64,000 nucleotides of DNA from Amoebophrya sp. A120. Taxonomy: Eukaryota; Protista; Dinoflagellata. Location: NCBI GenBank assembly GCA_905178155.1, contig CAJINV010000002.1, forward strand, positions 8,939,412 to 9,003,411, in the 5' to 3' direction. Positions 316 to 57,938 of this stretch are shown one piece after another (position 1 is the stretch's first letter; each line of letters begins with the position of its first letter). Position numbers and translations under genes: made by a program. The notes beneath the pieces were generated by a model that was not told where the DNA came from, did not search any database, and saw only the letters and a list, made by a program, of their open reading frames with translations.

Positions 316-3300
316 CCTCTCCGCGTGAAGACGCCAATTCCTGCTTTTTTTCTACGCAGCCGTGAAGAGCGTTTCTTTCCGTTTCTCGCCCTCCTGCACC
401 CGCAACATACTGGTCCCGCAAATCGAACACTGAATACTTTTTCGCCGGTTTCAAAGTTTCCGCATCGTCCTCGTAGAAATTCTTGTTTACGTCAGACTTA
501 CTTGATGTCTTATTTTCAACGTTTGATGCAGTTGGTCTTGCTTTCTCGCCGACTGCCTTCCTCGCATCTACTTGTTCTTTAAACGCATGCAGCTCCTGCT
601 TCCGCTGCAAGTACTCGTTTCTGGCCTTGTCGAGGGGGGAAGTCGTTGTATGATCCTTGTCATTGTACACGTTCTGCGCGAAGGCGTCTTGGAAAACACG
701 GTCACTCACATGGTTCCTGTTTAATACGTGGCTCTCCTTGCTGGCATGTAATTCTCTCTTGCGAGCATCCTTTTCCGCATCTACAGCTCTGCCCGGCTGC
801 ATCACAACCTCCAGTGGTGATCGTTTTGGGAGTTCTTTCCGCTTGTTGTTCTCAAACCCTTCGACTTCCCGCGCGGCCTTTTTGTCCTCCTCCCGCAAAC
901 GCAAGGCGATGGCGTCGATTCGCGAGGAAATCGCGACCCCCTGGTCGTCTTTTCTGCTTTGCGGCGGGGGAACTGACTTCGAGGTGGTCTTCGACGATGA
1001 AGAGGAGTCGACAACAACCCGCTCCCGTTGAGAATTAAGAGCTTTCTTGTCGGAATCCGGAGCACCATTTTCATCCCGTATTTGCAACCCTGGTGATCTT
1101 TGTTGTTGCGCTGTAGGTAGAATCTGCTGGTGCTTCTTCTTTTCCACGATCTTCTTGGAAGCGGGAGAAGCTGGGTACTGGGCCTGCTTTCGGTACATTG
1201 CCATCTTGGCGCGAACTTCATTTTCCTTCTCACTGCTCTTCTTCCTCATCTGAAGGTCTGCGTACCGACCAGGCTCGCGGCGGCGCGGCGGGTCTTGCAC
1301 CTGCTCCAGAGCGACGTTGTAATCCCGAGCTAAGAGTAAATTTCTTCGACCGTGGTCGCGATTCAACATTTGGTTCCTTTGTTCCTTCTGATTTGGCTTC
1401 CTCTCGTCCGCTGCGTTGTTCTGCTCCTGCTTCGCGTCTGTACCGGGTAGATCTGTCTTCTCTGGAGGTCCTTTCCGGTGGTCGAATATTTCTTCACTAG
1501 TCTTTTTCACCGGTGTAGATTTGCTGGAACGCACGACGACCCTCTTCACCACACCCGCACGGTCATTCGGATAATGCTCAATCCGTTTGGACGACGCAGG
1601 CCGCTGCTGAGGACGGTGCAAAACCTTTCGCGGAGTGGACCTGCCAGCAGGGTAGTGGTTGCTCTTGACGTTATTGCTTGGCGGTTGTGGCTTGTGGTCG
1701 TGCTGTATTTTTCTTTGCTGTCCGGCGACCGTGGGCTTTTTCTCTACTCGCCCTTGCTCAACCGCATTCATCGCATTCGGAGCGGTCCTCGGATCACTCA
1801 CGTTTTCCTTGTCCAGAACCACAAGCGACGCAGCAGGTGCGGGGGCAGCAGCAGCAGCTACTGCTGCTGCAACTCTGTCCAACTGCTCTCGCCGATGATC
1901 TTCAGCAATCTGCCCGTCCCCGTGCCGCTTCATCTGCTTTTTTGGGTTTAGTATTTCGTCCTGCTGTTCTGGAACCCTTTCTTCAGCGGGAACCACCACC
2001 CCCGCCTGAAGACCCTGTGCTTTCTTCATGCTGTTCTTTTCCGCATCAAGCGCCTGCGCCCGCTTCTTATCTTCCTCCAGCAATGCAAAAATCTGCTTCC
2101 GCAAAATCTGCTTATTCAGCAGGTCCCGCGCTTTCGGGCGTTTCCGCGGGTCTAGTTGCAGACACAGGTCCACTATCAAATGGAAAAATGTCTGGGTCTG
2201 GAAGAATGCAACTTGTGATGCTGCATTTGGATTCCAGAAGAATCTGTATTGCATGAGTACCAAAAGGAATGTAACATTTGCTACGCGGGGGAGAGGGCAT
2301 TTGTCATGCGGAATAGGCACCAAGAAGCTCTCAAAAAATCTGTCATGCTAGAACATGCATCACAGACATCAGGGCTCATGCAAAACGTGCATGACAAGTG
2401 TCAGAATCTTCCAGACCCAGACATTTTTACAGTTGATATCCACCACTTGCTTCAGCTCATCCAGTTTCGCGACATCAAGTTGATGCGAAGATTCGTGTTG
2501 TACAGCCGGGATATTATTTCGTCCAGTTGCACCTGCAGATGAGGACGAAGATGAACTGTTTCCCGGTTTCAACTTTTCGTATTCGCCTTTGAGGATTTTC
2601 AGGACCAAGCCCTTCATGCTTTCGTCGTCAAACGCGTGTTTTAACGTGATCATCTCGTACAAACAGCATCCAATGGCCCATATGTCGGACTTGTAGTCGT
2701 AGGGCTGTGCCTGGCAGATCTCGGGGCTCATGTAGAACGGCGTGCCGATGGCGGTTTTCGCAACGTCAGACGTGTGGGAGAGAACCCGCGCGATGCCGAA
2801 GTCCCCGATTTTCACGTTTTCGAAATTCGGAAGAACTACTGGAGGGTTGTTTTCTGACATCAGTGAAGACATTGCGACTTTGGTCAAAAAGATGTTCTGC
2901 GTCTTCAGATCCCGGTGCAGAATTTTCTGGTCGTGGATGTACTTCACGGCAAGTGCGATTTGCGTGAACCAACGGAGAATCAAACTTGCGGGAAGAAACT
3001 GCTTCAACTTTTTCTGCTTCCGAATCCGAGTGTACAGGTCCCCGTTCGTCGCATAGTCCATGACCAGACACAGAAGCTTCTGCGGGGACGCGGGCCGGTG
3101 ATCATTGTAGTTACCTCGCTCGTTGTCTGGGTTGGTTGTCGTTCCCGCTTTGTCTGCGGAAGTAGATGACCCCGTCAGGAAAGAATCACGATATCTGAGG
3201 AAACATCAATTGAAGAGGCTGCACATTTTCATATTATTTCACACGGTCAGTGTTGCATCACTCCTCCAAGAACAACATACACGTCCTCCTCGAGAATGCT

Positions 3301-3656
3301 GGATCATGATAGCACTTACGACAAAACCATTGTTCTCCTGGGCGTTCTACTTCATGCAGTACGCACAAAAAGATGTAAGCATCGAAAAATGAACACCAAA
3401 CCTACCTGATGATGTACGGATGCCGCAGCCTTCCCAGCACCTGCACCTCGCGATACGTATCATTCTTCTCTTCCTCGGACATTTTGGACAAATCGATCAC
3501 CTTCTGGATGAGCTGCTTCTCCGAGTGCCGGTCCCGCACTAGCCAGCATTTCCCGAAACTTCCCTCGCCCACCAACTTAACTTTCTCGTACCGCGACGAG
3601 CTGTTGGCGCTCCCGGCGGCAACTACCGGGGCCTGCTTGCTTTCAAGGCTCGGCAT
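316..3656 (-). CDS. NIMA-related (NEK1/4-like) Ser/Thr kinase with long charged low-complexity tail; 3' part continues off the left edge
   Basis: Motifs [52 protein letters not shown]. Exons 3656-3406; GT-AG intron 3195-3405; exon to ~2439; TIR element 2174-2438 whose removal gives [16 protein letters not shown]; exon to 316; GTAAGT donor at 315. Confidence 0.93.
2174..2438. mobile_element. Introner/MITE-like non-canonical intron (265 bp), TAT...ATA family A
   Basis: 32-bp TIR TATCAAATGGAAAAATGTCTGGGTCTGGAAGA / TCTTCCAGACCCAGACATTTTTACAGTTGATA; direct repeat TCCAC at 2169-2173 and 2439-2443; close inverted copy at 31888-32149. Confidence 0.93.
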
Positions 3657-4993
3657 GGCAAATCGTGCCCGATGGGGGCAAGTGTGACTTCCGATAGTAC
3701 AGGAACAGCAGCTTTAACAACGGCAGCTAGTCTCTGTGCAGCCCTGAATGTTTTCTTCTTTTTCTCACCACATTTGCTGCGGCGAACCAAGACCAGGCGG
3801 AGAAAATTCCTACTGCCGAATCATATTTGTTTGAGGTCTGCCATTACCGCAGCAAAAATCTTTGTCTGCGCATTGAAGCGACACCGGACGAAAGACCCAC
3901 CACGCACATTCGCTATATCAACTACGTACACTACTTTGTTTCCCCTGAACTTTTTCTCTCTCGCCTCTTTGGCATAAGCGGTTCCTTTTGGATTCTCTCA
4001 TCCATGCTTGCTCTCATTCGTGGAAAAAAAATCCTCCCCCATCCACTCGCGCCGAAAACACTGAGCTAAGACCTTTCATTCCATCAAAACTCCTCGGCTG
4101 AACTACCCCACCTAGCAAAAAACACAAACAGACACTGATGTTGCTCTACACGGGAAAAGCCGTGCCAAATGTCGCTTGTCGTTTTGTCCATTTTAGTCGT
4201 CCCAAAGTACTTTTATAAACTTTAACTTTTCTCAGTCCTGGGGTGCATGAGCAAACAGCAAGCTGTTGGTCGACTGAGAGGACCGGCGTGTATTCATAAT
4301 ATTATGGGGTTTCTGCTCGGTCTCAACATGATCCCGAGGTCGATACTATCAGAGGCGTCGCCAAAAAGTTCAAGTTGAACTCCTTTTTTTCACTGTCGTG
4401 TATTTCCTTTTCATTGGTGGCCATTATGTTCTCAAGAAAAATTGTCGCTTGCTTCTACTGGGAAGCCGTCAGAGCACCCCAGAATTTGATTGTCCCTTCA
4501 CTGAACGGCCTCGAATTGAAATGGACAAAAATTCGCGTGAATATATTTGCCGTCCAAAACAAGAAAAGACCATTTTTGCCATTGAAAAAGTCTAAGACCC
4601 CTTGCTTGCCGCAAGTGAGGCAAGATATTTGTCAACTGTGTGCGAATGTAGCGCAACACTGCGCCGCAGCACATTCTTCCACAGACCAAAATCTTCCGTA
4701 CGACCTGCACCTCCGAGAGATGACAAGTCTCGCTTCGCATTTGTACTTGTTTTTGCACCGATCAACTGCTGTTCTACTTGATCACAACTACACAGCAAAA
4801 TTTGTTGAGCTTCGAAAGCCACACTCTACTTACCAAGAAATTTGCAACGCAAAATTCTGTCTGCAACTGGCGAAGCAAGCAAATTGATTTCTCCGCGATA
4901 TTTTTTCCACGACCTGTGCAGCGCAACTTAATACTTACTTTTTACAACAGTTATCGCGTTCTTTCGGTCAGTTCGACCTGCGCCAACTATACT

Positions 4994-7914
4994 TTATTTT
5001 TGGTTTCTGAATGTGTCTCGCCACTCCGAGACGGTGAACATTATTTGGTTTCGGACCGCCTCGCTGACATTGGACAACTTCGCGTACTCTGACAGGGTTT
5101 TGCCGATCTTGGAGCTTTGCATCAAGGGCACAGTCATCGTTTTCCGTAACAGGTCGATCTTCGCGAGAGCGTCCTTCTCCTTCACAATCGTAGCATCCTG
5201 GTTATCGATAGCGTCCTGCAGCATTTTCTGGGTTTCCTCTAATGCAGTTTTGTTGTCCGTGGCCTGCAAGTTCGGATCATACTGCCGCGGGTCCACGAAC
5301 CGAGAGCCGGCCGTAGAAGAGGATTTCACATTGCCAGTACTCGCCTGGCTAGAACCATTGGAGTGCTGGCTAGGGTTATTTTTCCGGGCAGGCACAGGAG
5401 CTCCGCGGGACGTAGAGTGGTTGCTCGGAGACTTCAGGTCTGTGTTTTTATTCGCAAAACTACATCAAAAAAACCGGTAAAGCTACCGACGGCCGCTCAA
5501 CGATTCCATTCTGCATGACAGAAATGCAAATCCAATTGTATGCAGCAGTATCTTCCATGAAGATCTCATTGCGAACAACACGGTCGGAGGAGCACGTCCA
5601 ACACTACAATACCAGAGTCCATCCGGGTCGGCGCCAAGCAGCCACCGGTTGCTGTGGTTAACTTCGTGCTCCACTGTGCGGAGAACTTTTTCGCAAAGTT
5701 TTCCCGCATCTTTTTCCCGGTGGCGATGCTTGGGGCACCGAGTTCGTCGAAGGTGATGGATTCCTTGCGAACGCCGAACTTCTGCTGCATCAGCCTTATC
5801 AATTCTTCCTTCTGCGCCAGCACCCGGAGCTTCACGGATAGCTTTTTTTCAAAACTCTTCGACCCCCCTGTGTACCACGCGTCCCACTCCAGTGTGTTGG
5901 TGGAGAACATCTAAAGTAGATTTTCGTGCAGTTACAACATGCAAAAAATCATCTGATGTGTAAAACTACACGATCTGATTTTCATCGTGATCAACATCAT
6001 CTCCTTTTTAGACGCTGAGCGGCAATTCATTTTCATTCGTACAAAATCACATAGTACCCACGTTTTCCACTCCCTAACGGCCTCGAGAGTCAAATTCGAA
6101 TCGCGCTCGTCGCTGCGGCTGGTCTGACTCTCTTCCGCATCTCTGTCCCCACCGTTCATTTTTTTCCGTCGCTTCTTCCCTCCGACATCGCTGCCTGCGC
6201 CCCCCGCCACGGTGGGATTCCGGATAACCTTACAGATAAAAAAATGAAACGTGACGCACGATCGTCAAGACTTTTCGATTGACATTATTACTGGCAACTG
6301 GAACTCCTGCACCGATGATGTCAACAGGCAAAGATTTTTCCCGCTGCACGGAATTTTGCTAGGTGATTCACTTCTACCTCTTCGGCGTAAGTACACTGAA
6401 ATGTCGATGTGAAACCAAAGGTCTTATTCATTTGATACAAAGTCGAAAGCCTCCTGCGCCTCTGCGACGGGTCTGCGCACTCGTTTTGCGGGCAATAAAT
6501 GGTCTAGTGCCATGGTTAAGGGGTTTATCCGCGCAAAACCCGTCTGAGTCAGAGTCAAGCCGGTGAAAGACCGGTACGGAACTTTTCAAAATATTTTGAT
6601 GCATGAAAAAAAAACTCCGAGAACAATCAATCACGGATCATTTCTTCTCTCTTCACCGGTTCGACTCAGACTCGGGCAACATCTTTGTGGGTGGATAGCT
6701 AGCGGATTCGGCTTCGGTCCACCCGTAGCGTTGCTGCTTGCCGCTGCGCCGGCCGCCACCTTTTCCGCAGCGGCTTGCAGCCGTTTCTGTGCCGCAAGGC
6801 GCGCCGCGCCGGTTTGATTGTTGATAAAGCCGACTGTCTGCTGCGGGTTCATCTTCAGGCCTGGCAAAACTCGCCCGTTTACCGTTATTTCCTTGGAAGC
6901 ATTCTTCAACAGGTCACTGGCGCTGACAAAGTATCCACTGCAAAAAAAAAATGTCCTCCACATGCTGAAAAATTCGAATGCCAGCTGCTTCAGAAAGCGT
7001 AAAAGTGACCTTTAAGAATCACCGCCCACAGTAGACTGACTCTGTATTGACTATGCAGATGAAACTTCCGGCAGCCCGATGAGGAGGACAACCGACATGC
7101 TATTTTTGCAGGGCATAGCACATCATTCTCATCAGCGCCCTCCCACTGCCACGTACAAAAGATCGAATTCCCGGGTTTGGTCGACCGCCAGGTAATCTCG
7201 CTGTTGCTGCTGGCTTTGAGGTCCGCGCGCCAACCCGGATGCATTTCCACAGTATCGCCAACTTCGGTGAGCACGTGCAGTTGGGGCACTGAGTTGGTGT
7301 GTGGTTTGACTCCTTCTCCCACAACAAAGAACACGCACAGTGCGTCAAAATGAAAACACGTGATCCAACGTGGACCATCAACATTTGGAGGTTGATATCC
7401 ACCGATCATTTACTAGATCGAATAAAGACAATGACAATTTGTAAATGCCGTTCGAAGTTTTATTGCTTTCTTGCGTAAATCGAGAAAACAGTATCCGAAA
7501 GGTCGTGTTAGAAGTCTTTACGCCTTCAACAAAATTTTCTTCAAAAGTCACAAAACCCAGCAGTATAATACACGTAGCCAATTTCGCCGTGTTTCCGGTG
7601 ACTGTGACCAACCCCAGCTTCTGGTTGCTGTGCAGCCACATTCCTTGCAGGTCCGCGATCGTGAGCTTTTCCAGCCCGGGGCCGCTGTTGGAAGACGAAG
7701 AGTTTTTTGACACATTGGCTGCCCGCGCTGCCATCAGCATGTTGTGCTGCGTGGCACGCCCCGGCTGCTGCAGTACTGCAGGTATCTTATTGGCCCCCAG
7801 GCGCGACGAGGAGGACGAGGATGACGCAGCGACCGCAGGTCGGGCCACGGATACAGCACCTCCTGGTCGTCCTGCCCCCGGGGGGAGCGTGGTAGTTGTA
7901 CTGGAAGCTGCCAT
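4994..7914 (-). CDS. Multi-exon hypothetical nuclear protein with C-terminal TFIIS N-terminal (LW/Med26-like) helical bundle
   Basis: Chain of minus-strand ORF pieces (7378-7914, 6990-7409, 6631-6963, 5932-6210, 5566-5910, 4994-5395). The last reads MTVPLMQSSKIGKTLSEYAK...VSEWR, matching the TFIIS-N pattern. GT-AG intron 5911-6057 resolved; other junctions not. Confidence 0.6.
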
Positions 7915-10534
7915 TCTCGCAAATGTGCTCCTGCTGTCGCTGGCGATTATAGGAGAAGAAAACGATCAAAAAGTATGGGAGCGTCGCGGACGAGCAGCTG
8001 GGCTTCGAAGTCGGTTGTGTAGGCTGGATTGTTTTGTAGTTCGGGGGCGTGTCGCTCGTGTTTTCTCTTTTCCTCGGGCACCAGCTGTGCACTTCTATTA
8101 CTTGACTGTTCTTAACGTGTTTCGTTGAAAACCTGGTGAATTCGCAGATGTAGTCCGACGCGGTTTTGTATTTCCCTTCACCTTCTTGACTTCTCGCAGC
8201 AGTACACAACACAACGACAACACCGTCGAGCAGGTGCTGATTGTGAAATCAGTCTTTCGACTCAGGCAAGTGTCAAAAAAAAGTGTGCGCCGGGCAGAGT
8301 CGTGAGAGTCTCGACGGAGAAACGCTTCTACTTAGGACTGCTCTTTGCAGGAATTCGACTGTTCGTCTCGTCGTCGTCTAAGTGCTTTAGCTGAGGGTTC
8401 AGGACCAGGAGTATCCGTACGAAAAGGTGTTTAAAGATGGAAAGTTACGGAAACACTATTTGCACTCAGGTACTTTTAGGTGAGCGAAAATTCGGTATGT
8501 TCCTTAGGGCTGAGGCTGACAGACATAAGCGTTAGTTTTCTTGCAGCGGTAGAGCAAGACTAATTAGTGACGCGCGAAGAATTTTGTTCTCTTCGTGGCA
8601 CAAGAGAGATAGTGCCTGAAAAGCGATGACATGCACATAGGCGCGACTACGAATTTTAAATGAGAGAGAGGAAACGTCGTTGTGTTGCAAAAATGAAAAT
8701 TTGAATTTGTTGTACAGTACTGAGACTTCATGAATGACTAGAACTTGCACGGAAACTATCCGTAGAGGTAGAAGACTAATTCATTGCTACAATTAAACTT
8801 TGTTCGAGTACTTTCGAATTTGGATGAAAAAAACTGCAGGACTGCAACAAGGTATTGGTAATGAATCTCATGAATGCTTTGGCATCTATATGCGCCAAGC
8901 GTCTACGTCACACCGCCTCTTTGCAACAAGCTGCTCATCGAAAAAATCATTGAGGCGATCGTCGAGAATTGGCAGAGACAAAATAATCCTGCCAAACTAA
9001 ATCTATGAATCTCATCCGCGCATGCCACAGATGGCGGGTAGCACAGGACTCGTGTGAACGCTACCCGCCCTTGGACAGCGACAGGTGCAAAAAAGTGGGC
9101 TGCAGCCCCTGTTGGTCAAGAAATGAAGCGTACTCTTACTTCTACAAGCTATTACTTAATGGCAGCAACTACAACCGTCTGGCGTGGCTATTGACATGCA
9201 TGATCTCAGTCTCAGATGGAACTGCGTGGGCACACGATAGTGAAGTGTAATGATCGCAGTCGACATACTTACGTGTAGATCATGATGGGTTAGTCTTAGC
9301 CGCTGTATGAACGGTCAAACTGATTGAAGCGAAGTCGCTTCTCTTTTCTTGTTGCGCTTGCGATCATCTACGGAATACAAAACTTAAGCGACCTTTATCT
9401 TCAAGCTGATCAATTGTGTTTTTCCTGCACATAGTACTGTCTGCCAAGGTCGCAAGCGCGGCTTCGTGTCAGACATATCAAAGACAGTGCTCTCGTCTGA
9501 CTTTCAATTCTATTTTTCTCAGTATCAGGCTGCGAGTGACAATAGCACACATGTCCTCATTTCATTCTGGCCTGAATACCATTTCTCGTGATTGGACGAT
9601 TTCTGCTTGATCCCTTCCGGTGCAAGAAATCCAATATCCGTGTGTTCCTACAAGATAGTCTGCCTCGACCTGGATCCTCTGGGCTCCAGATAACGCAATC
9701 GCTTCGTGGGCGTTTCACGGGCTTGGGCAAGGCGCGCGCAACCGATATTTCTTCACAGACCCACACGAGATTCACCATGCGTCGCCACGTCCGCAGAGTC
9801 GAAGAGCAGCCGAGACCAAACAAGGAACAGCAACGAAGAGCGACACCAGACGATCACAAGCAAGACACATGTTTTTGAAGAAGGGCGACGATCGGAAACT
9901 TTTGAAAAACAGGAACAGAAGCAGTAGAACAATGCGCTTTATTCAGCGATGAATAAAGTAGAGGCTCTGCAGGCCCACGCTTGGAATGAAACAGGCCACC
10001 TGCGCTGGCAAGCGTATATTTCTCGTTTCCTTTGTTAATACCTGATTTTCTTTTTCTTCGAAGCTTCTTGTCTAGGTTGACAACTCGATAATTCCTACTT
10101 TCGTCCGTGATCACAGCGTGTTAAACAGGTGCAGCCTCTACAGGTGAAGGCCGTAGATGTTGCAGCACAGGAAAATACAATTTCTCAAAACCTTGTTCAG
10201 AACAAGGCTAGAGGCAAGAATTCTTTTTTTCTAAATGTTACGTGGGGGTGATACAACAGACACAACGTCGCAGGAGGTAGGTACAGCTTTAAAGATCTTT
10301 TGGAAATCTCACGTCGCAGCACAGAATAGGCTAGCGGTAAGAACATCAAGAAGGTACTTATTTGGCAAGTTTTGCTTCGTCGTTTTGCGAAATGCGAGTT
10401 TCCATGCATCTAGTGTAAAGGGGCGCCCACAGCAGATGTTGAGTGGAAGCTGAAGGATGGTACTTCTACAAGGAAGCCGAAAGGAATGAAACACCAGATA
10501 ACCACGCAGTGGAGCGGAATTATCATGCCGTCTT

Positions 10535-11474
10535 CTACACTGCTTGTATACTGGTGTCACTCACGCCGAGCTCCTCAGATTCGAGTACCCTGGAGTAATC
10601 CGTGCTTGGTTGGTGTACTACAGCATGAACAACATTCGACGCCGCTCCAAGTCCGATCAGCATAAAGATAAAACTGCCCAAAAGCACGATGAGCACCAAA
10701 ACGGAAAGCCCCGACATTCCAGCCATACCTGGTGGTTTTTTCTTCTTGATGTGAACAAGGCCGAGTGAGATGCAATAGAGGAGGCCCGCTGGGAAGCAGA
10801 AGTTCGCATCGTAGTCAAGAAGTCAAAAAAAAACATTGTATGTTCTATACGGTGTTGCGGCGTCAGCTCCACACCGCCGATCACAGTTCTCCATTCCGGA
10901 TTTGCGTTTTTATTGAGGAAAAACGCCCACGCACCGCCGAGCTGTTTTTGATAGAAAGATGTTTTTCTCCGGTCATTTTTCTCATTGCAGAATTTTTGCT
11001 TTTCTTGTGTGCATTCGCGAACCACACAAAACATCAAGATACGCATATCTATGAAATTAATCTCAATACTGCCAAGATGCACAGCAGGCTTGTTGGGTTC
11101 ATGAGCAGACCGAACCCTAGTATTCCCGCGTCCACAACGGCGTAGTTCCAACGGAAGTAGCTCAGATTTTTCGTCACTTGCATCACGTTCAGGCCCGTGG
11201 GCTTCGCCACCGCGCAAAATTCGCCCAGCCATGGTCGGATCACGATTCGGCTGTTCATCGCGCTCTGCAAAGCCGTGGAGCCCGAGGAGGAAGCCGTACT
11301 AGCGGAATCCATCACGCCCTGAGGGATGGCGGATTTTACCGACTCAAAGAACGTGTTCAGAGAGGGATGCAGCTGCGGTCTCCCAACCATCTCCTGCATC
11401 TCAATCTCGTTGTTCGCATTCACACCGCCGGACGAAGGGCCCGAGGCATACAGCTGGTTCGGAACGACGCTCAT
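10535..11474 (-). CDS. PRA1 family (prenylated Rab acceptor) protein, ~229 aa, 3 exons
   Basis: RPWLGEF...NLSYFRWNY and C-terminal VVHAVVH motifs plus hydrophobic hairpins. Exons 11474-11070, 10941-10851, 10728-10535 are joined in frame by GT-AG introns. Confidence 0.88.
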
Positions 11475-12284
11475 TTTTCCTTGCTTTATTTTCCAGCTTT
11501 TGGCAAGAATGCCAGTTCTTCTTCTTGTTCTTCCAGGGGGGTACGTCCGGCGTACTAAACCTGCTTGATCTACGAGGTGCTATAGCCAAAAGAAGAGAAA
11601 CTATGAAGCAAATGCGACTACGGGAGCTGCTTCTAGGGTTCTTTCGGACTGCGTCAATAACAGCGTGGTAGCTGCAAACAAGACGTATTTGATAAAGATG
11701 CAGCTAAAAGTCAAACCATCGAGCTGAGCTCTACTTTCTCTGTGACTACCTTTCTCTCAGCGTCGTTGGCAAGAACGCCAATGCACTTCCTTAGCCTCAG
11801 TGTCACGAGTTGGAGTTCGATCACGCTATGCAGCGTCACCCGAGGAGCGGCACGACGAACACTCGAGCTACACAAGTTCCTGCTTACACGAAGTCGATAA
11901 CCTTCGCGACACCGTCGTTCGTTGTTGTATTTGGTTTCCCCTATCAACTCAAATTCTACATGTTTTTCTCCTTTCTGTTAAAGAGAGACCGATCTTCATC
12001 TTGGATACATCATGTACATCATTTTTCTAGAAATCTCGTGTCGAAAAAGAAACTCAATTTATGCACAACAAACGAATCTCGATACTGTAATTGTTGAAGT
12101 TGAAGTGGAAGTTGAAGATAGTTCGATTCTACAAAAACATCTACAAGCTCTGGGTCGTGACCCTGCTCATGAACAGAACTAACATAGTTTTGCCATCAAT
12201 TTCAATGAGTCTGTACCAGTACAAGCACTGGCCGAGTTCATCTTTGCCGGAGCCGATTCACCACATTTACAACATTCGCCGGCT

Positions 12285-15200
12285 TCACTTTACGCGGTCA
12301 CTCCGCCCGTAGTCCGTCGTACTCTGATGGCGCAGCCCAAAATTTCGCGTTGCCTGCGACGCAAACTGCCGCGCGTCCCGGGCGGCCGACTCGTCAAACA
12401 TCATGGTGTTGCGGCGCCGCATCAAAGCAAGTTCGAACTCTCGGTCCTGCACACGCTCCTCGTGGTTCCTCGTGCGCGCCATGATGTGGTGCATGGAGTT
12501 TTGCATTTTCAGCAAATCCTGCTGAGATGGCGGCTCCCGTTCCCTTCTCTCCGGTCCACTGTGTCTGCCAAGCTCCACCATATAACAGTGCACAACTCCC
12601 CCTCCCCCTCATTTGTATAGCATGAACGGCAATACAAGCATCAGCAAGAATGCCGGTTTTGCATGACAAATTTGCAGTGGAGTATGTATGGTGGTATTTG
12701 GGCTACCAGAACTTGTCATGCAAACAGTGTCAAGAGGCAAAGGGTGGATTGGGTATTTTGCATGACGAATCAGGGGGAGGGGGAGTTGTGCACTGTCATA
12801 CTCCACCCCGTGCTGTTCGTGTTCGGATTTGAAGGCAGGCGCGCGTGGACTACGCAGCACTTGTTGTTGCTGTCTCGGAGTAGCAGCGCTCCGTGCGGAC
12901 CTTGGCGTTGCTTGTGGTTGTAGTTCCGCAGCCGTTTTAGTATTTTGTTCGGATGAACCAGCAGCGTGGTTTCTATGATGCGGATGCCCACCGTCGTGCT
13001 GGTGCGCTCCGTGCGCAGAGGATGCTATGACTGCTTCGTCGTCGTGCCTGTTGGTGATGTCCAATGTTGGATACTGATCGGACGCGATGCTTCCGTAGAT
13101 ATCGTTCTCTGGTGCTCCAAAAACGGTAGGGTGAGACCTGGTCAAACGCGGAGCAGCGTGATGCCCTGCCGCGATTTGGTGCGCCCCAGCTGTCTGTTTA
13201 TTCTCTTGGTCTTCATACAGTAACGCGCCGTAATTTTTCCCGCCCATGGCGACGTGCGGGGCGGAGTTTTCCGGCGTGTCCCCACTTGCACCTCGTGGAA
13301 CCAGGTTTGGGCTGGAGACCGTCCCCGCGAGAAGGCGCTTCTTCGTCCTCTCTCGCCTCTTGTTCGCGTCCGCCTGGCATTGATCCCGCGCAAGGCCCAG
13401 CAAGTCCGCGGAGTCCTGCTCGGCAATTTGGTCTTGCTCCTTCAGCATCCTTAAAGCCGACATGAGCGGCAACGCAAGAAACGACGCGGCTGTCTCAAGG
13501 GCGCTCCTCGTTCGCTCCGCATACATGTTCAGCGAGGAAGCGCTTCTTCCATTCTCAAGCTCGGACGACTGTGGCACGGTCCGACTGGCGAGCGAATGCC
13601 CGCTGCTGCGGCTAAGCATGCTCGCACTCGTCACCACATTCCGCCCCGCCTGCATTCCCGCCTGGCGCTGGTCCTCCGGAGTAACCATTTTTCCGTGCAA
13701 CTTCTCATCCGCCTTCGCGTTCTTCGCTAGAGACAGTAGTTGTGGCGGCTTGTAGCCGAAAAGGGACCGCCGCAAATAAAAGTAGAACAAGTAGAGCCGA
13801 CTCCGTCTGGCGACCGCACCCCGGCCCGTGGAGGCAGCAGAGATGACTTTGGGTAAATCCTGTTTCCAGGTGCCGATGGTGATCAAATTGTTACCGTCGT
13901 CGTCCATGACGTCGAAGAGTAAGCGCGTAATCTGCAGGCACCGCAGAAGCTCCACTTCCCCGCGGATGCAATCGGTCACGTATTCCGCCACCTGATAGCG
14001 GGAAGGAGATCGTGTTCTCATTCTGACAAGCTCAATGCCACCGTCCTATACGAAAAACTAAACGAATTTCAAACCAAATACCTTATGACACAGCAGCAAG
14101 CTGCTATCGGCGTCCGTCTCGTCCTCGGGCGGCACGAAACCGAAATCTTGCCCCATGTACTTGTACAAGGCGACCAGCTCCAACTCTCCCAGGCAACTCG
14201 GGGCCGCCGGGTCCTCTTCGGCAATCTGCATCGCGTGGTAGAGAAAAAAGTGGTCCGCGTTATGCATCAGCAGAATGCACCAGCTGATCCAGATCACGCC
14301 CGGGAACATCGCTAAAAAGACCGCGACGATCAGGTAGTTTTCGACAGAGAGGTTCAGCGGATTGTCTTCCCCGCTGCTGTACACGGCGATCACCGTCCCG
14401 ATAAAGTAACAGGCCGGCACGACCCACCGGGACACGCCGTCCAGGTCCTGGACCAATAACGGCCCCAACCGCTGGTACAGAATCTCGCCTATCATCACCG
14501 CCAGGACGCAATTCGTCATCACCAGCGTGATATACAGCAAGGCCGCGTCGAAGTGGGACAGTTCGAACATGGTATCCGGCGCCTCCTTATCCTGTGCAAA
14601 AGTATCGTACTCGTAGTAATCGCAGGCATGCATTACAAATCTTTTTCCTAAGGTCAATCAGCATTACAAGTTCCATTTCTCATGCGGAGAAAATTTGTAA
14701 TGCAATTCATACTAGAAGAACTAGTACGATACTTTTGCAATGCATACTCCTCGGTCGCAAACGCCTTGAAGTTACCGAATGCGAGAAAGGCGAGGAACCC
14801 GGACATGAACCGCGGCATAATGTTCGACGGGTGCACGATAAACGTCGAGAACGCAAAAATCGTCAGCAGCGCCGCCGGAACCCAAATCCGGTAGCGCATC
14901 AGCCCCACCGCGCGGGCGACAGTAACCTTTAACGTCGCAACGGACGTGGCCGAAGCGTCCGAGGTGGTTGTGGTGTTGGACCGAGTTAGGAGAAAACTGG
15001 ACTTTTTCGGTTCCCAAATCCGCACCCAGTGGTTCTCGGCGACAATTGCGGGGACGCCGGGGGAGAAGTATGGAATGTTGAAGTTATCCGGCCGCAGAGC
15101 AGTGAGCGCCGCTTGCAAATGGGCGGGGGAGAAAGCGAAGGAAGATGAAGCTGTACTAACAGCATTTCCACTACTTGTAAGTCCTTGTGCTGTCGCACTC

Positions 15201-37450: not shown

Positions 37451-37645
37451 GTCGACGCGCTGTCGTTGGTCCCGACTTCTTTCAGCATGTCAAAGTAATT
37501 GACAATCAGCAACAGCTCCATCACGTCGCTGGCGGACACCCTGTGATAGAAATTGCACAAAGTACTTGTTTCTTGTCTTTACGGATTTTTCATGCAAAGG
37601 CCGCATCGTCACAATCTACAAACGCAGCAACCGGCTACAACATTA

Positions 37646-38855: not shown

Positions 38856-39303
38856 CTTAGATACTAGGGTGACACAAAAACAAAGGCAACGAGCTTTATT
38901 CTAGAACGCCATTCTCACAGACGACAATCCACTCTACTATCGTGACGCAATTTACCTCGCTTTTGTGGAACGGTTGCAACTGACTTCTCCAACCCTCTCT
39001 GCTTCTTATGTAACGCCGCGAGGCACGCACGCATGCAGCTCTAGTCACTCTACAAGAACGACATCATAAACAAAAACCCGTGCACAAAAGCAAAACTACT
39101 CGGACACAGTTGAAAACATTCGCTGCAGCAAAGTTGTGGGGATTTTTCCAGCCGGGGACGCGATAGTTCGTTTCTTTGTATCCGTTCGATTATTAGGCCG
39201 AAGCCGGGAATAGAACGCGTACGCGCTATTGTCCTGAAAAAGAAGTTGAAGTGTCGTCGGAAAATAGTATAAAATTCGGAGTCTGCTTCACTACAGTTCC
39301 CTG

Positions 39304-45355: not shown

Positions 45356-47449
45356 CTACCAATCTCCGCCGTACCCAGCCGTCCCGCCATGCCTGCTGCC
45401 CGTGATCAACACATCTGACTTCGTCGACTCGCGCTGCGCGGTCTCCAACTTCGGACAGGCCGCCACGCGGTGCCCGAGCCCGCCGCAGTACACGCAGCCC
45501 TTGACACCACCGATCTCGGCCACCTCGTGCCCCGGGGGAGGCACGATTTTTTCCAGCACCGGGTGAATCTTCTGCTTGGACTCCTCCAGCACCGCTTTCA
45601 AATCGAGCAAAATCCCGTCCGTGCACTGGATCTTGTTGATGAACGTCGTGGCCACCCCCGCCTGCCCCCTTCGACCCGTCCGTCCTATTCTGTGGATGTA
45701 ATTCTCGATCTCCTTGGGCATGTCGTAATTGACGACGTGCTGAATGGCGAGCGGGAAATCCAACCCCTTGGACGCGACGTCCGTGCCGATCAGCACCGAT
45801 TTCTTCCCGGTTTTGAAGTCGTTGATGCTCTCCAGCCGCTCCTGCTGGTCCATGCCACCGTGAATCGCGACCGCGTCGACCCCCTTCAACAACAGGTACT
45901 CGTGGACATCGTCCACGTCCGCCTTGTTGTCGCAGAACACCAATACCGGCGGGGGGGTTTTCGACAGGGAGTCCAATACCGCCTTGTGCTTGTCCTCCTG
46001 CTTCACATAGGCGATCTCCTGCAGAATGTCCAAGTTCGCGCTCCCCGCGCGCCCGACGTTCACCACCACCGGGTTCGTCAGCATACCTGCGGCGAAGTTC
46101 TGGATCTTGCGGGGCATGGTCGCGGAGAACAGCAGCGTCTGCCGCTGCCCGGAAAAGTGGTCTAAAGTTATCCTGACCTCCTCCTCAAAGGTCGCGTCCA
46201 CCATTCGGTCCGCCTCGTCCATCGCCATCAGCTGGCACTGCTTGAGGTGCATCTTCCCCATCTGCAACAGCCCGTTCAGCCGGCCCGGCGTCGCGATCAC
46301 AATGTGCACGCCGCGCTTCACCGTGTTGATCTGCGGGCCCATCGGCGCGCCGCCGATCAGCAGCGCGAACTTGATCTGCCGCCGGTTGCGCCGCCACAGC
46401 TCGGACGTGGTGTCGTTGTGTAGGTGGTACAACAGAAATTTCAGGTTCTCCTCCGTCTGCACCGCCAGCTCCCGACTGGGCGCGAGCATCAACCCAAACG
46501 GGCCTTCCCCCTCGGACATGGGCTTCTTCAACTCGCACTCCATCGCCTTCATAATGAGTGGTAGCAAGAAGCACATCGTTTTCCCACTACCCGTGAACGC
46601 GATCCCAATTAAATCCCGCCCTGCTAGAGCTGCGGGGATGCCCTGCATCTGAATTTGAGTCGGCTTTTTGATCCCCTTCGCGACTAGCGCGTCCACCAAG
46701 CCCTTCGGAAACCGCATGTACTCGAACTTCTTCAGCGGCGGGGGTAGGTCCGCGCCCGCCGCTTCGAACATAAACATCTCGCGCAGCTTTTCGTTTTCCG
46801 CCTCGGACTGCAGGCGGTGTTTCGCGAGCGGCCTCCACTGCCCGATGGCTGGCATGGGTTCCTTGTATTTGATCCCCTTCGCGTTTTCCTGCCGGGACAC
46901 GAGCGGTGTTTGGTACTGCAGTTGCTCCATGATCTTCGCTTCCGACTCCTCGATCTCCCTCCGCAGCTGCTTATCCTTATCCTCGCTGTTCGCCTCTTCT
47001 TTCGCGCGAATCTCCGCGGACTGGGCCAGCAGCGAGCTTTGTCCGGTGGACCGCTCGGCGAGAATTTTTTTCAGTTTTTCCTCCAGCTGCTCCTTCTCCT
47101 TCTCCTCGTCGTCTTCGATCAGTTCCGCTTTTCTCCGAAGTCTATTCAACTCTTGATTTCTCTGTTTCTTCCGCTCCTTCAAAGGGACGTAGGTGGGTTC
47201 ATTTTTCTCATCCTCGTCTTGTTCATCTTCGCCATCAAGAAGATCCTCCTCGTCCTGTTCTCGTTGCCGGCGCTCCTCCTCCTCACGGAGACGTCTTCGT
47301 TTCCGGTACTCCTCGATGACCTTCTGCGCATCCTCCTGCTCGGTGTTTCCTGCTTCCGAATTAGTTGCACTTTCACCGGGTCGCTTGGATGAGGGTCTAG
47401 TTGTACTACTTCCCTGCTTCGGCGGCAACGACGGCGGAAGCATCGACAT
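45356..47449 (-). CDS. DDX41: DEAD-box RNA helicase DDX41/abstrakt
   Basis: PTQIQMQG, GIAFTGSGKT, PSRELA, DEAD, SAT, TDVASKGLDFP, HRIGRTGR and C-terminal zinc knuckle GCVYCGGLGHRVAACPKL; intronless. Confidence 0.95.
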   Translation of the reverse strand: MSMLPPSLPPKQGSSTTRPSSKRPGESATNSEAGNTEQEDAQKVIEEYRKRRRLREEEERRQREQDEEDLLDGEDEQDEDEKNEPTYVPLKERKKQRNQELNRLRRKAELIEDDEEKEKEQLEEKLKKILAERSTGQSSLLAQSAEIRAKEEANSEDKDKQLRREIEESEAKIMEQLQYQTPLVSRQENAKGIKYKEPMPAIGQWRPLAKHRLQSEAENEKLREMFMFEAAGADLPPPLKKFEYMRFPKGLVDALVAKGIKKPTQIQMQGIPAALAGRDLIGIAFTGSGKTMCFLLPLIMKAMECELKKPMSEGEGPFGLMLAPSRELAVQTEENLKFLLYHLHNDTTSELWRRNRRQIKFALLIGGAPMGPQINTVKRGVHIVIATPGRLNGLLQMGKMHLKQCQLMAMDEADRMVDATFEEEVRITLDHFSGQRQTLLFSATMPRKIQNFAAGMLTNPVVVNVGRAGSANLDILQEIAYVKQEDKHKAVLDSLSKTPPPVLVFCDNKADVDDVHEYLLLKGVDAVAIHGGMDQQERLESINDFKTGKKSVLIGTDVASKGLDFPLAIQHVVNYDMPKEIENYIHRIGRTGRRGQAGVATTFINKIQCTDGILLDLKAVLEESKQKIHPVLEKIVPPPGHEVAEIGGVKGCVYCGGLGHRVAACPKLETAQRESTKSDVLITGSRHGGTAGYGGDW

Positions 47450-48081
47450 TTGATTGAAACTTGAAACGATGAAATCAGATTTGGGTTTTGACTCGTGGTA
47501 CAGAGTATTTCTTCATGTTCTTCAAGATGGTGAAAATTAGTGGGGAAAAAAAGGATACTTAAAAAGCTAGAGAGGAAATTGTAGGACGGGTTATTGCTTT
47601 TCTTCCCTTGGTCTCTGCGAAAATAAGGATAAAGGATCAGAATGTAAAAGTAAATTACATGTATCCTTTCGCATGAAAAACGTACACAGTTTCTGCAAGA
47701 AAGACAATTTTTTTTGCGACATTTTCGAATCAAACTTCATGCTGTGCTCTTCGACAGCAATTAGAGGGCTGAGATCTGTTTCTCACAGGGCTTTCTTAGT
47801 TTACGAATCGATTTGAGATCGCGTCACCCATGCCCTGCTCTTTCTAAGGTGCCTTTCGTTTCAGCAGATCAACACGCTATTTTTGAACACTGAAAAGGAA
47901 AACCAGCTATCTCTTTTACTCCGCGAACAAAAAAAGGATGTTGCGACGACCAGCAAAAGGACACTGCTCCGTCGGTTTTGAGTACTTCTATGTACAAATG
48001 CTAGTCGTGAGTCGCGGTCGCTTCTACTGTCGTGATCGTGAAGGTATTACGAGTGAAGAAATTTTGTCGAAATCAAGTTCC

Positions 48082-51000
48082 TTATCCACCAAAGAGTCGA
48101 CTTTTTTCATCTGCATCCGTGACCAGCAGGCTCTGCATCCATTCCGCGCTCCCAGGCGGAATTGCAATCGTCCGACCCAAGCGACTGTTGTCGGCAGTCT
48201 CGTCTATTGCCACCAGAACGCCCTCCAGCACGTCCGAATAGTACGGGCAAGTGGGTTGTGCTGCTTTCGAAGTTGTCGCACCGCCGTTGCCTGCCTTCTT
48301 ATGCGCTAAATCGCTGTTCTGTTCCTTATCGAGTAACTGTCGCCAGAGGGGTAAGATCCAGTGCCACAGAAGCGCGCTGCCCGGCTGGCGGTACAGCTTC
48401 TCGGCAAAGCGGACAGTCGCTTTTTGTCGCTTTTGGGCTGGAGTCAGTGGTGCTGCCTTGCCCCTAGTACTCCCAACCGGTTTAAGAGCGAACAAAGCGG
48501 GCGACGACGCAGGATCTCTCCTGGTCACGGCAAAGGTTTGTAGGCTCACGCAAAATGCTTTGAACTCCTGAAACAGTCTCGTCTCTGCTGGGTCAGCTGG
48601 CTTTCTGCGAACGTTTCCGTGCTGATGTCCAGCAGCTGCAGATGCATTTTTTTCAGCAGCTGTTGGAAACGTACTCGTTGCTGTATTTTTTGCGGAAGAT
48701 ACTTCTAACAACACCATCTTGCGGATAATTCTCTCCAATGCCGCATTCGCTCGTCGCTTGTCTTGCTGGGTCACGGCGTTCAGTAACGTGGCAAACTCTT
48801 CGGAAGAAGAACTTCCCAGTGATTCTCCGGCTGTGCTGTTCCCACGACCTCGGAAGAAATTCAGCTCTGTCTCGCTACTGCAACTTGCCGTTACAAACGT
48901 GCCCGCTGCGGCGTTCCAAGAAAGATGCTGTTTTCCCACTAAAAGAAACGGTGTGCAGGCTGGAAGCCGCGAAAAGCCAAGGCGAACTGTTGCGTGGCCG
49001 CCTGGGGAACTACCGGTTGTTGTACTCTGCGCGACTACATCCTCGACAACCCCGGCTTTGCTCAGCAAACTTCTTACATTCGTTTGAAAATGCAGCGTGA
49101 TCGGTTCTGGAGGCGGCGCAGCTTGGTTTCTACTTCTGGCTTGATTTTTTCCCGTTTTCAGCGTCTCCTTCGGATCCACCGCTTCCTCCGGCATTTGCAG
49201 CCCGTTGTAGTTCCAGCAATACACAAACCCGCCGGTCGTCAGGATCATGAACCGTTTCTCGCACGCGGACACCTGGACCTGTTCCTGTCCGAACGGCACA
49301 CCAGCGCTTTCGCTGTTCTGCAGACGATTTCCGTAGAACTCGGGCAGCACGGTCTTCAGCGCGATCGGTAACCCGGTCTGGGTGTGGAACACTTGGAAAT
49401 AAATGAAGCCGTCACTCTCCTCCACACTGTAAACGTTAAACTTCGCAGCACGGTACACAAACACGGTAAGTATCTTCGAGGCGAAGATTTTTAGCACGCG
49501 GATGTCCTTTTCCACCGGTTCCAGCCACACCGGGTCGTGCTGGTGCAGGCCAACCAGCCTGTGGTTCTCGTAGCAGATCGTCCAGTCCGGATCCCCTTCG
49601 GCCGTCACGGCCAAAGCAGCGGAGGTCGGTGGGGTCGTTTGGGGGCTGGGTGCGAATGTAGTCGATGAACTGGCATTGATTTCGTGGCTCGTGGGACCTA
49701 CTCCGCTGCCGTTGCGGCACCGGTTCCGTGTCCGCAGAACTTTCTCGACTAACGCCTGCCCGTAGTCTCGTTCCCCGTCGTCGGTTGATGAAGCTGCTGG
49801 CGCGGCAGCAGGAGGGGAAGCAATTGCTTCGCAGACTGCTTCGAGCTGGGCCCGGACCTCAGCGTACGACTGCTTTTCTGGATACAGCAATGCATGTAGG
49901 TACTCGTCCGGAATAGGCAAAAGCTCGGATGCGCTACTATCGGATTTTGCAGCCGACCCCTTTCCCCGGGCCGTACGGTGAATGTGGTGGAGCAGCAACT
50001 CCCGAAGCGCCACTTCGTGAGCCACATACGGATCTTGCACTGTCGTGGAAGCTCCGGATAGGTGGTAGTTTTCTGCCTCAGTGTCCGATGGCGCGCCCCC
50101 GGGGCCAGTTTGTCCCTCTGCGAAAATCTTCTTCTCGTTTTTTTTGAGCCAACCAGCACTAGCAGTATCTTCTTGTTGTACAGCGCCATAGTTTTTTTCC
50201 GTACCACCTTTAGTGCGTCCACTGTTCAACACTTTTTCAAAAACCGCACGGAGTTTCTGCTTCCTGCGCTCAACAAGCTCTGTGTCCGTCGATGCTGAGT
50301 CCGGTTTTTCTGCATCGTACTTGCTGGCGCGGTTCTTCGCGAGCGCAACGTCTCCTGCAAGATGCTCCGTTTTCGCATTCGCTTTTTCCTCCCGCTGCCG
50401 GCGATACCGTTCCGCTTGCAGCTCGTGCACAATCTCGCTCCGGATGTGCGACACCTCGGCCTCTGTGAGGTGGTCGACGGCGATATGAAAAGGAAAAATC
50501 CCCCCCTCCCCATATCAAAAAGGAAACCTGTGATGCTGGATTTGCGCACACAAATGAGATTTGTATTGCAGGAAGGCATTGCGGTCAGATCCCCAGGCTA
50601 GGTAGGGGCGTATGGGTCTACTTGTTCAGCATTGCAAACGGCTGACCTTTAGGCCCAGCAGCATGACAAATCGCTCCCATAATGGGGCGGAAGCTTCTGC
50701 CCTTGTCTTCTTGCTAGACAAATGTGATTTGTGACCTCAAATCAGCAGCGCAAATTTTCGGAAAGATACCTTTTCGATATGGGGAGGGGGGATTTTTCCT
50801 CTCAATAGGCGAAACTTTTCGCAGCGTCCGACAGAAGATCTTTTAGCTCGCTCAACTCTCGCCCTTCTCTCCGCGTGGGCTGTCGCAGCTCTGACACCGC
50901 TGCACCAGACGCGAAGGACGCGTCTTGGTTGGACGAAAGCGAGGGGAAAGATCGAGACTTACCCGACACTCCGGCCTCGTGACGCTCCGCAGCCAGCAGA

Positions 51001-52869: not shown

Positions 52870-55433
<2,564 letters not shown>

Positions 55434-56112: not shown

Positions 56113-57938
56113 CTACCCCTCAGCGCGACCTATTTGCAATTTCATAAAGACCACGTCCTCGCCTGAAAGAGATGACCCACCGTTCACAGCAGTGTGTTTT
56201 GTTTTGCTTTGCGAAGGAACTGCAACAGCATTGTCCAGTAGTGCGCTTTTTGCGAACTCGTACGCGCCGAAGAAGATAAAGCCTCCCGCCCCGACCCACA
56301 AAACCCGCGGGACCACGCCGCAAAAGAGAGCACTGAATCCTTCCTCCGCTACGATCTTCCGCAGCATGCCCCGCATCGTCATGTCGCGAATTTGTCTCGT
56401 CTTCGCCGTCATCAGCCTTGTTTTCGCAACGTCCATAGGGCACGTGAAAAAGGCCGCGATCGCGCCTCCGAAACTGCCGCACGCTGCGCCGATGTATCAA
56501 AGTGAAAAAAGCCCCCACCCCAAAGCAAAATGGAAATTTGTGATGCTGATTTGCGGTCACAAATCGCGTTGTAATGCTAGAATGGAAGAGATGCGGACTG
56601 TAGTGCTGGCTGCCGCAGAAACGCCTTGCGGCTTTGGCATGACAGAAATTTCCTGGAAACGGGAAACAGCATAACAAACTGCCTCCAAACGAGGGAACAA
56701 CTACGTCTCTTGGCCTTCTAGCAATACAAATCGATTTGTGTACTCAAATACAGCAACACAGATTTCGTTTTCGATATGGGGAGGGGGGATTTTTCCTCAC
56801 AATACGATGAGCGGGTTGAGTTCCGCGACGGACCTATCCTATGTAAAAACGTACCCACCCCAGAGTTGTCATGCAATTCTGCATGCCAAAAAAGTTTCTC
56901 ATGTAGAGCCCTATGAGAAGCATTTTCTATTTATGTTTTGGAATTTGTTATGCTAGAATCAGTATTGTAGGCTAGATCTGTAATGCTTCTGAGCTAGCGA
57001 AACAGGATTACACTACGAGGACAAACTTGTCATGCCAAACGACCAAAGCTGTGTGATTTGTCTAGCAGATTTGCCAACGTGACTCTGGTGTGGGTACGTT
57101 TTTACTCAGGATAGGACCCGCACTTCCACACATTCACAGCGAGATGGAGTTTCAGCCCTTCGTAAATCGGAAACTGGATGAATGCAAACGGAACCTCCCG
57201 TGCGATGGTGGAGGATAAGCCCGCGTAGAACCCGCGCACTGAGCCCCGCCCGTTCCCGTCGAAAATCATCTGCGCGGTTTGCGATAGGGATTTCTCGGCG
57301 GTCACCTGCATCTTCTGCTTGATGTTTTCAGTCGGCACTCGAATCAAACAAGCAGCAATTTCCCCGGACGCCGCCGCCGTGGAATGCGCAAGCCACGAGT
57401 ATTTGCTGCTGAAGTGCATGGTGGAACTTTGCTCGATAGAAATTGGAGGTGTTTTCTTTCCGCTAGAGGAAGCAGTTGCTCCATCATGCTGTTGTCGCTC
57501 GTCGTGTGAACAGCCTTCGGCAACACCACTTTCCTGTCGCATTCGCTCATCAAACGCGTCCGCTCCCCCGTTATATCGGTGTTTGTACTTCTCATTCAAG
57601 TCATTTCGCCACTGCAAATGCCGCGGTGCGGTCACTGCAGTACTATTATTCCCAGTCGATAATTGCCTCGCGCTCGGCTTCACGGTCCAGTACTCGATTG
57701 CGGAGAGTAGTTTCGGTTTTAGGAATTCGTACGTGGCGAAAAACAGGGCGGCATTGGGCCACGATCCGATCGCCGTGATGGACAAGCCTCGGTAGATGCC
57801 GCTGAAGCCACCGCTTTTCCAGAAACCGTCTTTCGCCTGGAGACGTGTCTTCAGCGTGTCCATGGGGAACAGGGCAACGTCCACCGTCGTGCCGGCAAAG
57901 CCCCCGGCCAGAAGTGCAGTTTGTGTATCGACCGTCAT
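56113..57938 (-). CDS. Mitochondrial carrier, S-adenosylmethionine transporter-like (SLC25A26/Pet8)
   Basis: FPMDTLKTRLQ, RVPTENIKQKMQ, REVPFAFIQFPIYE, CPMDVAKTRLM, PRVLWVGAGGFIFFGAYE; two TIR elements flank a micro-exon. Confidence 0.92.
56495..56804. mobile_element. Introner-like element (310 bp), related to 50484-50807
   Basis: TAT...ATA ends; right TIR TTTTCGATATGGGGAGGGGGGATTTTTCCTC near-identical to 50771-50801; direct repeat CGATG; removal gives NPLIGAACGSFGG. Confidence 0.92.
56835..57113. mobile_element. Introner-like element (279 bp), related to 34273-36066
   Basis: TIR TATCCTATGTAAAAACGTACCCACCCCAGAGT / ACTCTGGTGTGGGTACGTTTTTACTCAGGATA; direct repeat GGACC; removal gives WKCGSVAELNP. 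Confidence 0.92.

Follow-up and report, generated by a model that had tools for sequence, protein, structure and literature searches.

How can a gene still be expressed when mobile elements have been inserted into its exons, and which bases decide where they are cut out? The question is raised by a 64,000 nt stretch of contig CAJINV010000002.1 from Amoebophrya sp. A120 (the window), whose genes are interrupted by elements that begin with TAT, end with ATA, carry terminal inverted repeats (TIRs) and are flanked by direct duplications of 5 bp. Such elements, called introners, have been described in this organism (Farhat 2021; PMC7789003), as a preliminary description of the window acknowledged. 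That description listed eight of them and proposed that each is lost together with 5 further nucleotides through a pathway guided by the TIRs. Here, a single register, in which 1 nt is taken ahead of TAT and 4 nt beyond ATA, is found to fit all nine elements covered by transcript-like contigs, and the distribution of changes at the element ends suggests that splicing, rather than the hairpin, is responsible.

Removal was assessed from transcript-like contigs that come from two samples of one study and belong to runs taken, by guess, to be RNA. They were compared with positions 1–15600 (four runs) and 30500–50499 (one contig each of X3 and X4) of the window and cover the elements at 2174, 6526, 6932, 12581, 14588, 30690, 31888, 32346 and 34273 (named here by their first position; Table 1). 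For 1–15600, 13 exon joints are listed (a further two are unlisted, and two of those listed link different elements). Eight are GT-AG, and all five that are not skip a TAT...ATA element plus 5 nt, with losses of 270, 177, 191, 225 and 164 nt. GT-AG introns and elements are missing from the same contigs. Overall, element plus 5 nt is absent at eight of the nine covered elements, and one edge is listed for the ninth (30690). The predicted loss of exactly this length was thus seen for five of the eight elements originally proposed (2174, 12581, 14588, 31888 and 34273).

The position of the cut within these 5 nt is pinned by copies with decayed duplications. When k denotes the number of bases that the cut takes ahead of TAT, read on the coding strand, and 5-k the number taken after ATA, k=0 is excluded at three of the nine covered elements, k of at least 2 is excluded at five, and k=1 fits nine out of nine. 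Because no other value fits them all, the intron is N-TAT...ATA-NNNN. The unambiguous junction at 6932 has the ends CT...TT.

Table 1. Introners and associated features of the window. Joints are the window positions linked in transcript-like contigs, with the length lost; k is the number of bases removed before TAT that each joint allows. Predicted introns follow the 1+4 register.
Coordinates	Strand	Feature	Length	Duplication	Joint and support	k	Predicted intron	Remarks
2174-2438	-	Introner, family A	265 bp	5/5	2168->2439 (270 nt), 4/4 runs	0-5, ambiguous	2170-2439	Protein kinase gene
6526-6697	-	Old introner	172 bp	1/5, decayed	6520->6698 (177 nt), one X3 contig	0-1	6522-6698	
6932-7117	-	Old introner	186 bp	1/5	6927->7119 (191 nt), one X3 contig flagged 'between: not known'	1 only	6928-7118	Slide impossible; sole unambiguous 1+4 junction
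12581-12800	-	Introner, family E	220 bp	4/5	12575->12801 (225 nt), 4/4 runs	0-1	12577-12801	
14588-14746	-	Introner, family B	159 bp	5/5	14582->14747 (164 nt), 3/4 runs	0-5	14584-14747	Large membrane-protein gene
30690-30944	-	Old introner	255 bp	2/5	X3 and X4 contigs cease matching at 30946; one edge listed	1-3 if 5 nt extra		Now 3' of predicted stop codon
31003-31883	-	Later insert	~880 bp					Multi-copy, (GAT)n tail; retained in transcripts
31888-32149	-	Introner, family A	262 bp	4/5	X3 record 9 and X4 record 15	at least 1 (1-5)	31884-32150	
32346-32486	-	Old introner	141 bp	2/5		0-1	32342-32487	
34273-36066	-	Introner, family C	1794 bp	1/5	36067 joined to 34267 (1799 nt), X3 and X4	0-1	34269-36067	Enlarged by internal insertions
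50484-50807	-	Introner, family D	324 bp	5/5				Removal predicted from frame test only
56495-56804	-	Introner, family D	310 bp	5/5				Mitochondrial carrier gene; arms 15/24 alike
56806-56830	-	Micro-exon	25 nt					Between two introners (1+4 register)
56835-57113	-	Introner, family C	279 bp	5/5				Mitochondrial carrier gene

Reading frames provide a second line of evidence. Deletion of element plus 5 nt had been said to open the host frame every time, but the test fixes the extra length modulo 3 only, +2 and +8 being equally open. In the carrier gene, the model from which both elements and 5 nt each have been removed equals protein P0001 (named Amoebophrya sp. A120; first exon 99% identical) letter for letter, and this +5/+5 combination has the best mean score against 117 homologues among nine offset pairs. 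The GC content (51.1% for the window, 51.2% published for Amoebophrya A120) is in keeping with the same organism. Pfam places a protein kinase domain in the host of 2174 and a mitochondrial carrier domain in the host of 56495 and 56835, as initially proposed, but a channel, the third host domain suggested, had no Pfam or PDB match in the gene at 14750–15700 (minus strand). This gene has a YPFDRQ motif followed by hydrophobic helices, as in pentameric ligand-gated (Cys-loop-like) channels, and may encode such a channel.

To these were added 147 related loci (258,660 bases) from one public assembly (JACKZZ contigs) which, because they were found via the family A end pattern, give statistics biased to that family. 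They contain 263 candidate pairs, and 234 were kept once 29 (nested, inside another element, or long without a duplication) had been dropped. Flanks were too short for 52; of the remaining 182, 94 passed the cut-offs, which included the requirement that +5 be the best frame, and make up the oriented set. Gene strand was predicted with a codon model trained on the window, where all of the elements are in minus-strand genes; 18 of 20 held-out 3-kb chunks of the window were called clearly minus and two were near zero. The model favoured +5 (modulo 3) in 89 of 102 well-scored related loci, on both strands. A GT/GC-AG register equivalent to element removal is available in only 6/94 oriented elements, which supports a removal route without need of GT-AG, as the preliminary description held, and no consensus is evident at intron positions +1, -2 or -1.

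The elements are non-autonomous DNA transposons of Amoebophrya, i.e. introners of the miniature inverted-repeat transposable element (MITE) type, that have inserted into exons with a 5-bp duplication: they are short, have TIRs and a duplication of fixed length, and are without recognised coding capacity. An anchored inverted-repeat scan of the window found nine TAT...ATA pairs scoring at least 14 and none in 12 block-wise dinucleotide shuffles; at a score of at least 12 there were 16 pairs vs 0.58 in shuffles. One of the nine, at 23643, is a tandem-repeat unit and hence no element. All 24 arms of the 12 window elements start with TAT and 18 fully match the motif TAT-N7-AAA (13/16 among the eight originally listed). 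The five families recognised initially are confirmed; 7/12 window elements have 5–95 interior matches among the 234 related elements, whereas 34273 and the four old elements lack such matches. Seven of the original eight elements stand as placed, whereas for the composite 31003/31888 only 31888–32149 is an element, and the four without an intact duplication (6526–6697, 6932–7117, 30690–30944 and 32346–32486) had been missed. TIRs of about 24–37 bp had been reported throughout, an overstatement for 56495, the arms of which match at just 15 of 24 positions.

Five of the 12 window elements (2174, 14588, 50484, 56495 and 56835) have perfect duplications and two (12581 and 31888) match at 4/5. Six perfect duplications had been counted, but GGGTC belongs to the composite 31003–32149, which is not removed as a unit, and 31888 itself is flanked by a 4/5 match; the single mismatch (12581) and the absent duplication (34273, 1/5) were described correctly. 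The signature claimed for all families recurs in the related loci, where 180/234 duplications are perfect and 26/234 match at 4/5. Among the 263 candidates, 180 repeats are perfect at 5 bp, four at 4 bp and none at 6 bp, and in a search that asked for no terminal motif, only for an inverted repeat enclosed by direct repeats of 5 bp, 183 of 205 pairs were TAT...ATA. Family A lies with and against the gene in a ratio of 18:19, and no target consensus, or G or AG enrichment, was evident in the duplications of the 94 oriented elements. In decayed duplications the position of the mismatch is flat (7, 5, 4, 5, 3), and duplication identity is weakly correlated with arm score (rho 0.18). Two related copies have longer repeats: L060:1829-2108 is flanked by a perfect 8-bp repeat (5+3), and 1+4 removal would add one codon, and L141:76-330 has a 7-bp repeat within a CTT run. 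The viral contigs scanned gave no matches.

Removal is probably the work of a relaxed U2-type spliceosome that reads a few terminal bases of the element. The two ends of an element mirror each other, and so N-U-A-U comes to lie on the 5' side whichever way the element has inserted, like the GUAU donors of the host except for G+1; the read-supported canonical introns all start with GTA (8/8), five of them with GTAT. The 3' side offers a U-tract and then AUA. The spliceosome would ignore G+1 and AG, take U+2 as the donor, branch at the first A of AUA (A-7, the predicted branch point) and make the 3' cut 7 nt on, and pairing of the arms may bring the two ends together. As 1+4 equals the length of the duplication, fresh insertions would be removed without a scar. 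According to PMC7789003, the organism has U2, U4 and U6 and almost the full set of spliceosomal proteins, with U1 snRNA (small nuclear RNA) given as not found. Precedents are reported from Entamoeba invadens, with a branch fixed at -8 (bioRxiv 10.1101/2022.06.08.495308), and from Fritillaria, where a U2 spliceosome deals with introns that lack GT-AG (PMC13326754, PMC11282704). Table S4 of Farhat 2021 (PMC7789003) gives predominant sites that start NT in A120 (9/9) and TT in A25 (9/9).

The spliceosomal reading draws on an asymmetry between the two ends. Of 238 arm pairs with a duplication of at least 4/5, 16 show a change in the terminal triplet. Twelve of them could be confidently oriented; L073 was set aside as a false internal pair, and L001, L116 and L125 as weakly oriented, L001 being one that would oppose the pattern. 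In the 12, the T at the 5' end (intron +2) is changed in none and its mirror, the last A (-5), in six; the first A of ATA (-7) is changed in none and its mirror (+4) in three; and terminal position 2 is changed 1 vs 2 times (A to G at +3). The asymmetry has a Fisher p of 0.012, which becomes 0.018 when the three true pairs of weak orientation are included, L001 as a counterexample. A transcription-linked mutation bias is rejected because the two biases oppose one another in mutational direction and because interior arm positions are balanced (15 vs 12 changes). Judged from these predicted orientations, the asymmetry favours a relaxed spliceosome over a nuclease and ligase acting on the hairpin or excision from DNA. 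More tentatively, and somewhat less likely than not, the A120 spliceosome may have lost its need for G+1 and the 3' AG in most introns. U+2 would then serve as the donor and an A exactly 7 nt from the end as the branch, the mirror-image TAT/ATA termini of the transposon providing the two; with a register equal to the duplication, insertion into any exon in either orientation would come at no cost. If this is true, the diversity of splice sites in Amoebophrya reduces to one rule, N-TAT...ATA-NNNN.

Several observations weigh against the spliceosomal reading or the data beneath it. The unambiguous 6932 junction is a single contig carrying the flag noted in Table 1, all of the transcript-like runs are RNA by guess and share one study, and the polarity of the cut was read on minus-strand genes only, as every covered gene is on that strand. 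The 12 variants are a small set, oriented by the codon model and presumed to be spliced, and one, L080, has a best frame other than +5. The lariat branch at A-7 and the associated snRNA pairing are predictions. Ordinary branch sites carry a U 2 nt before the branch A, and here the base 2 nt before A-7 is variable; moreover, A is present at -7 in only 4/8 canonical introns. Dropping both G+1 and AG is chemically demanding for known spliceosomes. In old copies whose duplication is decayed, 10–14 bp of the arms can still pair, which would suit a role for structure. Finally, 8/9 of the A120 sites in Table S4 (PMC7789003) also end AN, the mirror of NT, and for this reason that table could reflect mixed strand calls.

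An unlikely but substantial alternative is that a spliceosome-independent nuclease and ligase might read the paired arms in the pre-mRNA and place its cuts 1 nt ahead of the stem and 4 nt beyond it, a route proposed for the nonconventional introns of euglenids. In nine of the 11 elements folded, pairing extends to the terminal bases of the minimum-energy structure, and the retention of arm pairing in old copies, the lack of consensus at +1, -2 and -1, the lack of an ordinary branch motif and the report of U1 as undetected in either strain (PMC7789003) are all what such an enzyme would lead one to expect; in euglenids the pairing begins near +4 and -6, and the excised introns come out as circles (PMC11170887). 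However, if RNA pairing set the cut, G-U mismatches should exceed A-C mismatches on the transcribed strand, and on the predicted transcribed strand they stand at 57 to 70 (p=0.29). Seven of the 12 terminal variants break a pair, and the change that is permitted depends on the side and not on pairing, with the conserved bases coinciding with the spliceosomal U+2. Of 93 elements, 34, 32 and 49 have a mismatch at stem positions 4, 5 and 7, respectively, and 6526 and 6932 are removed though their ends are unpaired in the predicted fold. Guidance by the TIRs, as put forward in the preliminary description, thus stays a hypothesis of lower probability.

Its other suggestion, precise excision from DNA at some life stage as for the internal eliminated sequences of ciliates, fares worse and we regard it as highly improbable. 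The TIR and duplication anatomy would suit it, and contigs omit rare variants, but record 7 of run X1, which was classed as DNA-like, spans 32120–36862 with 0 gaps at a depth of 44.6, like its flanks, and retains the 32346 and 34273 elements; X1 (15 of 150 joints listed) may itself be the source of the window. GT-AG introns are missing from the same transcript-like contigs, and the end constraints track predicted gene direction, although insertion orientation is random. No separate somatic nucleus is known in Amoebophrya cells. Stable hairpins between short direct repeats are also the textbook setting for jumps by reverse transcriptase, and these hairpins are stable (-43 to -135 kcal/mol) and lie between 5-nt repeats, so the joined forms could be artefacts and the genes truly interrupted. 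This is just as improbable: 6932, 6526, 34273 and 32346 share the register without a usable repeat, and removal restores conserved proteins, with the frame-keeping offset favoured at 89 of 102 related loci. Least probable of all is that conventional splicing makes use of GT/GC-AG sites close by, at differing offsets. At the 1+4 register 34/94 oriented elements do start with GT and 3/94 have a full GT-AG, but the scarcity of equivalent registers, the skipping of exactly +5 and the CT...TT ends at 6932 speak against it, and for the contig-covered elements it is contradicted.

The region at 31003–32149 had been treated as one removed unit of two parts. This is wrong, because 31003–31883 stays in the transcript: the contigs retain 30946–31883 and, of the former composite, lose just 31888–32149 plus 5 nt. 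Between 32487 and 31883 they lose 413 nt (141+262+10), and a gene model built on the contig cuts is 3356 nt long, equal to the contig's own coordinate. On either side of the insert lies a 9-nt repeat, a copy of the terminal bases of the 31888 element. The insert landed at the 3' end of this introner and takes the place of the C-terminus predicted for the host protein, and the 30690 element, downstream of it and past the stop codon, is apparently still removed. The insert may be LINE-like (long interspersed nuclear element); it had no family match in Pfam, a longer-protein search or Atlas. Raw RNA reads of run X10 match only the 34-nt family A end at 31888–31921 with a different flank, indicating presence of the family and not of this locus.

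A common insertion signature, as the preliminary description argued, is compatible with one transposase, but the enzyme stays an inference, since none was recognised in the window or the related loci. The enzyme is predicted to work in trans and to be a DDE transposase of the integrase-like kind. In the 1794-bp element 27 open reading frames (ORFs) are listed and none was recognised, the six scanned in Pfam having no match; none was recognised in the long related copies, whose ORFs were read by eye only; and no autonomous partner with the same ends lies within the 64-kb window and 259 kb of related loci. The insertion at 34914–36026 in the 1794-bp element is rich in nested palindromes and is skipped by family members elsewhere. 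The best candidate mobiliser is A120 TIR family 38 of Gozashti 2025 (PMC12130899), which is described as holding integrase-like ORFs within its TIRs. IS3EU/GingerRoot elements are similar in their TA..TA termini and have an integrase-like DDE enzyme, but their duplications are usually 6 bp (PMC10045372), whereas here 180/263 are perfect at 5 bp and none at 6 bp.

Remnants of introners may also be present. A decayed family A arm without TAT lies at 20680–20712 inside a 245-codon minus-strand ORF, and a solo decayed family A arm at 23146–23184 falls within 21400–24500, about 3 kb without clear coding signal that contains degenerate tandem repeats with periods of 62, 101–133 and 126 nt. In the canonical GT-AG intron at 6229–6438 (minus strand), nine bases after the G match the family A end, and this intron is possibly an old introner that has turned canonical. 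Elsewhere in the window, co-oriented genes for Band 7/SPFH, DEAD-box helicase, class II (D/K/N) tRNA synthetase and SLC25A26-like carrier proteins occupy 37881–57938 (minus strand), and two dispersed two-copy intergenic repeats of 70–90 nt are found at 28511–28600/37331–37420 and 18559–18627/28776–28844.

Neither the class nor the terminus is new, because both are printed in Farhat 2021 (PMC7789003) and 18/24 window arms match the published motif; the shared TAT, presented as a novelty in the preliminary description, is in section 11 of that paper. It reports 29,850 A120 introners of mean length about 240 nt in many families, with inverted repeats of TAT, seven variable bases and AAA, 3–5-nt direct repeats, RNA-seq-supported non-canonical junctions and no transposase. 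More than 60% of Amoebophrya introns lack GT-AG, and the removal mechanism was left open in 2021. What is added here is a sharper and directly testable rule. With the 1+4 register, junctions described as variable come under a single rule by which roughly 30,000 A120 introners could be re-annotated. The rule singles out two bases, U+2 and A-7, and predicts one product, a lariat whose branch lies 7 nt from the end, all of which can be examined in public RNA-seq. It would account for the spread of introners through exons, as they need no target sequence, insert either way round and leave no scar when removed, and it bears on how non-GT-AG introns are removed in Amoebophrya, where U1 snRNA was not detected (PMC7789003). 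Neither a fixed 1+4 register nor the U+2/A-7 asymmetry was found stated in the literature searched, which included few subscription papers; Fig. 3 and S19–S25 of PMC7789003 may show the register. In the accessible text of PMC9860276, Amoebophrya is named in the reference list only.

Compared with known systems, the introns described here differ from U2-type spliceosomal introns in that 6/94 have a GT/GC-AG register and the 6932 ends are CT...TT. The introns of Fritillaria borealis resemble them in having TIRs and target-site duplications without GT-AG, and are handled by a conserved U2-type spliceosome with a changed U2AF (PMC13326754, PMC11282704), but have AG-AN ends and retain U1, whereas the ends here are N-T...N-N and U1 is undetected. 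Euglenid nonconventional introns likewise have transposon-like ends, non-canonical junctions and a paired motif whose spacing from either end is constant (PMC11170887); theirs is CAG/CTG at +4/-6, with circles reported, and here it is TAT/ATA at +2/-5 with asymmetric variation of the ends. In the 32 of 58 A120 rows available from Gozashti 2025, most families are classed as TIR DNA elements of 100–350 bp with many non-canonical sites, the duplication calls range from 2 to 6 and the register calls differ by family, with no single register (PMC12130899). The closest match is to the A120 introners of PMC7789003, which come from the same organism, as judged by protein identity, and share the TAT-N7-AAA arms, direct repeats and non-GT-AG junctions. 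That study describes direct repeats that differ in length and placement and splice sites that shift with respect to the hairpin, whereas the elements described here are accounted for by one 5-bp duplication and one 1+4 register.

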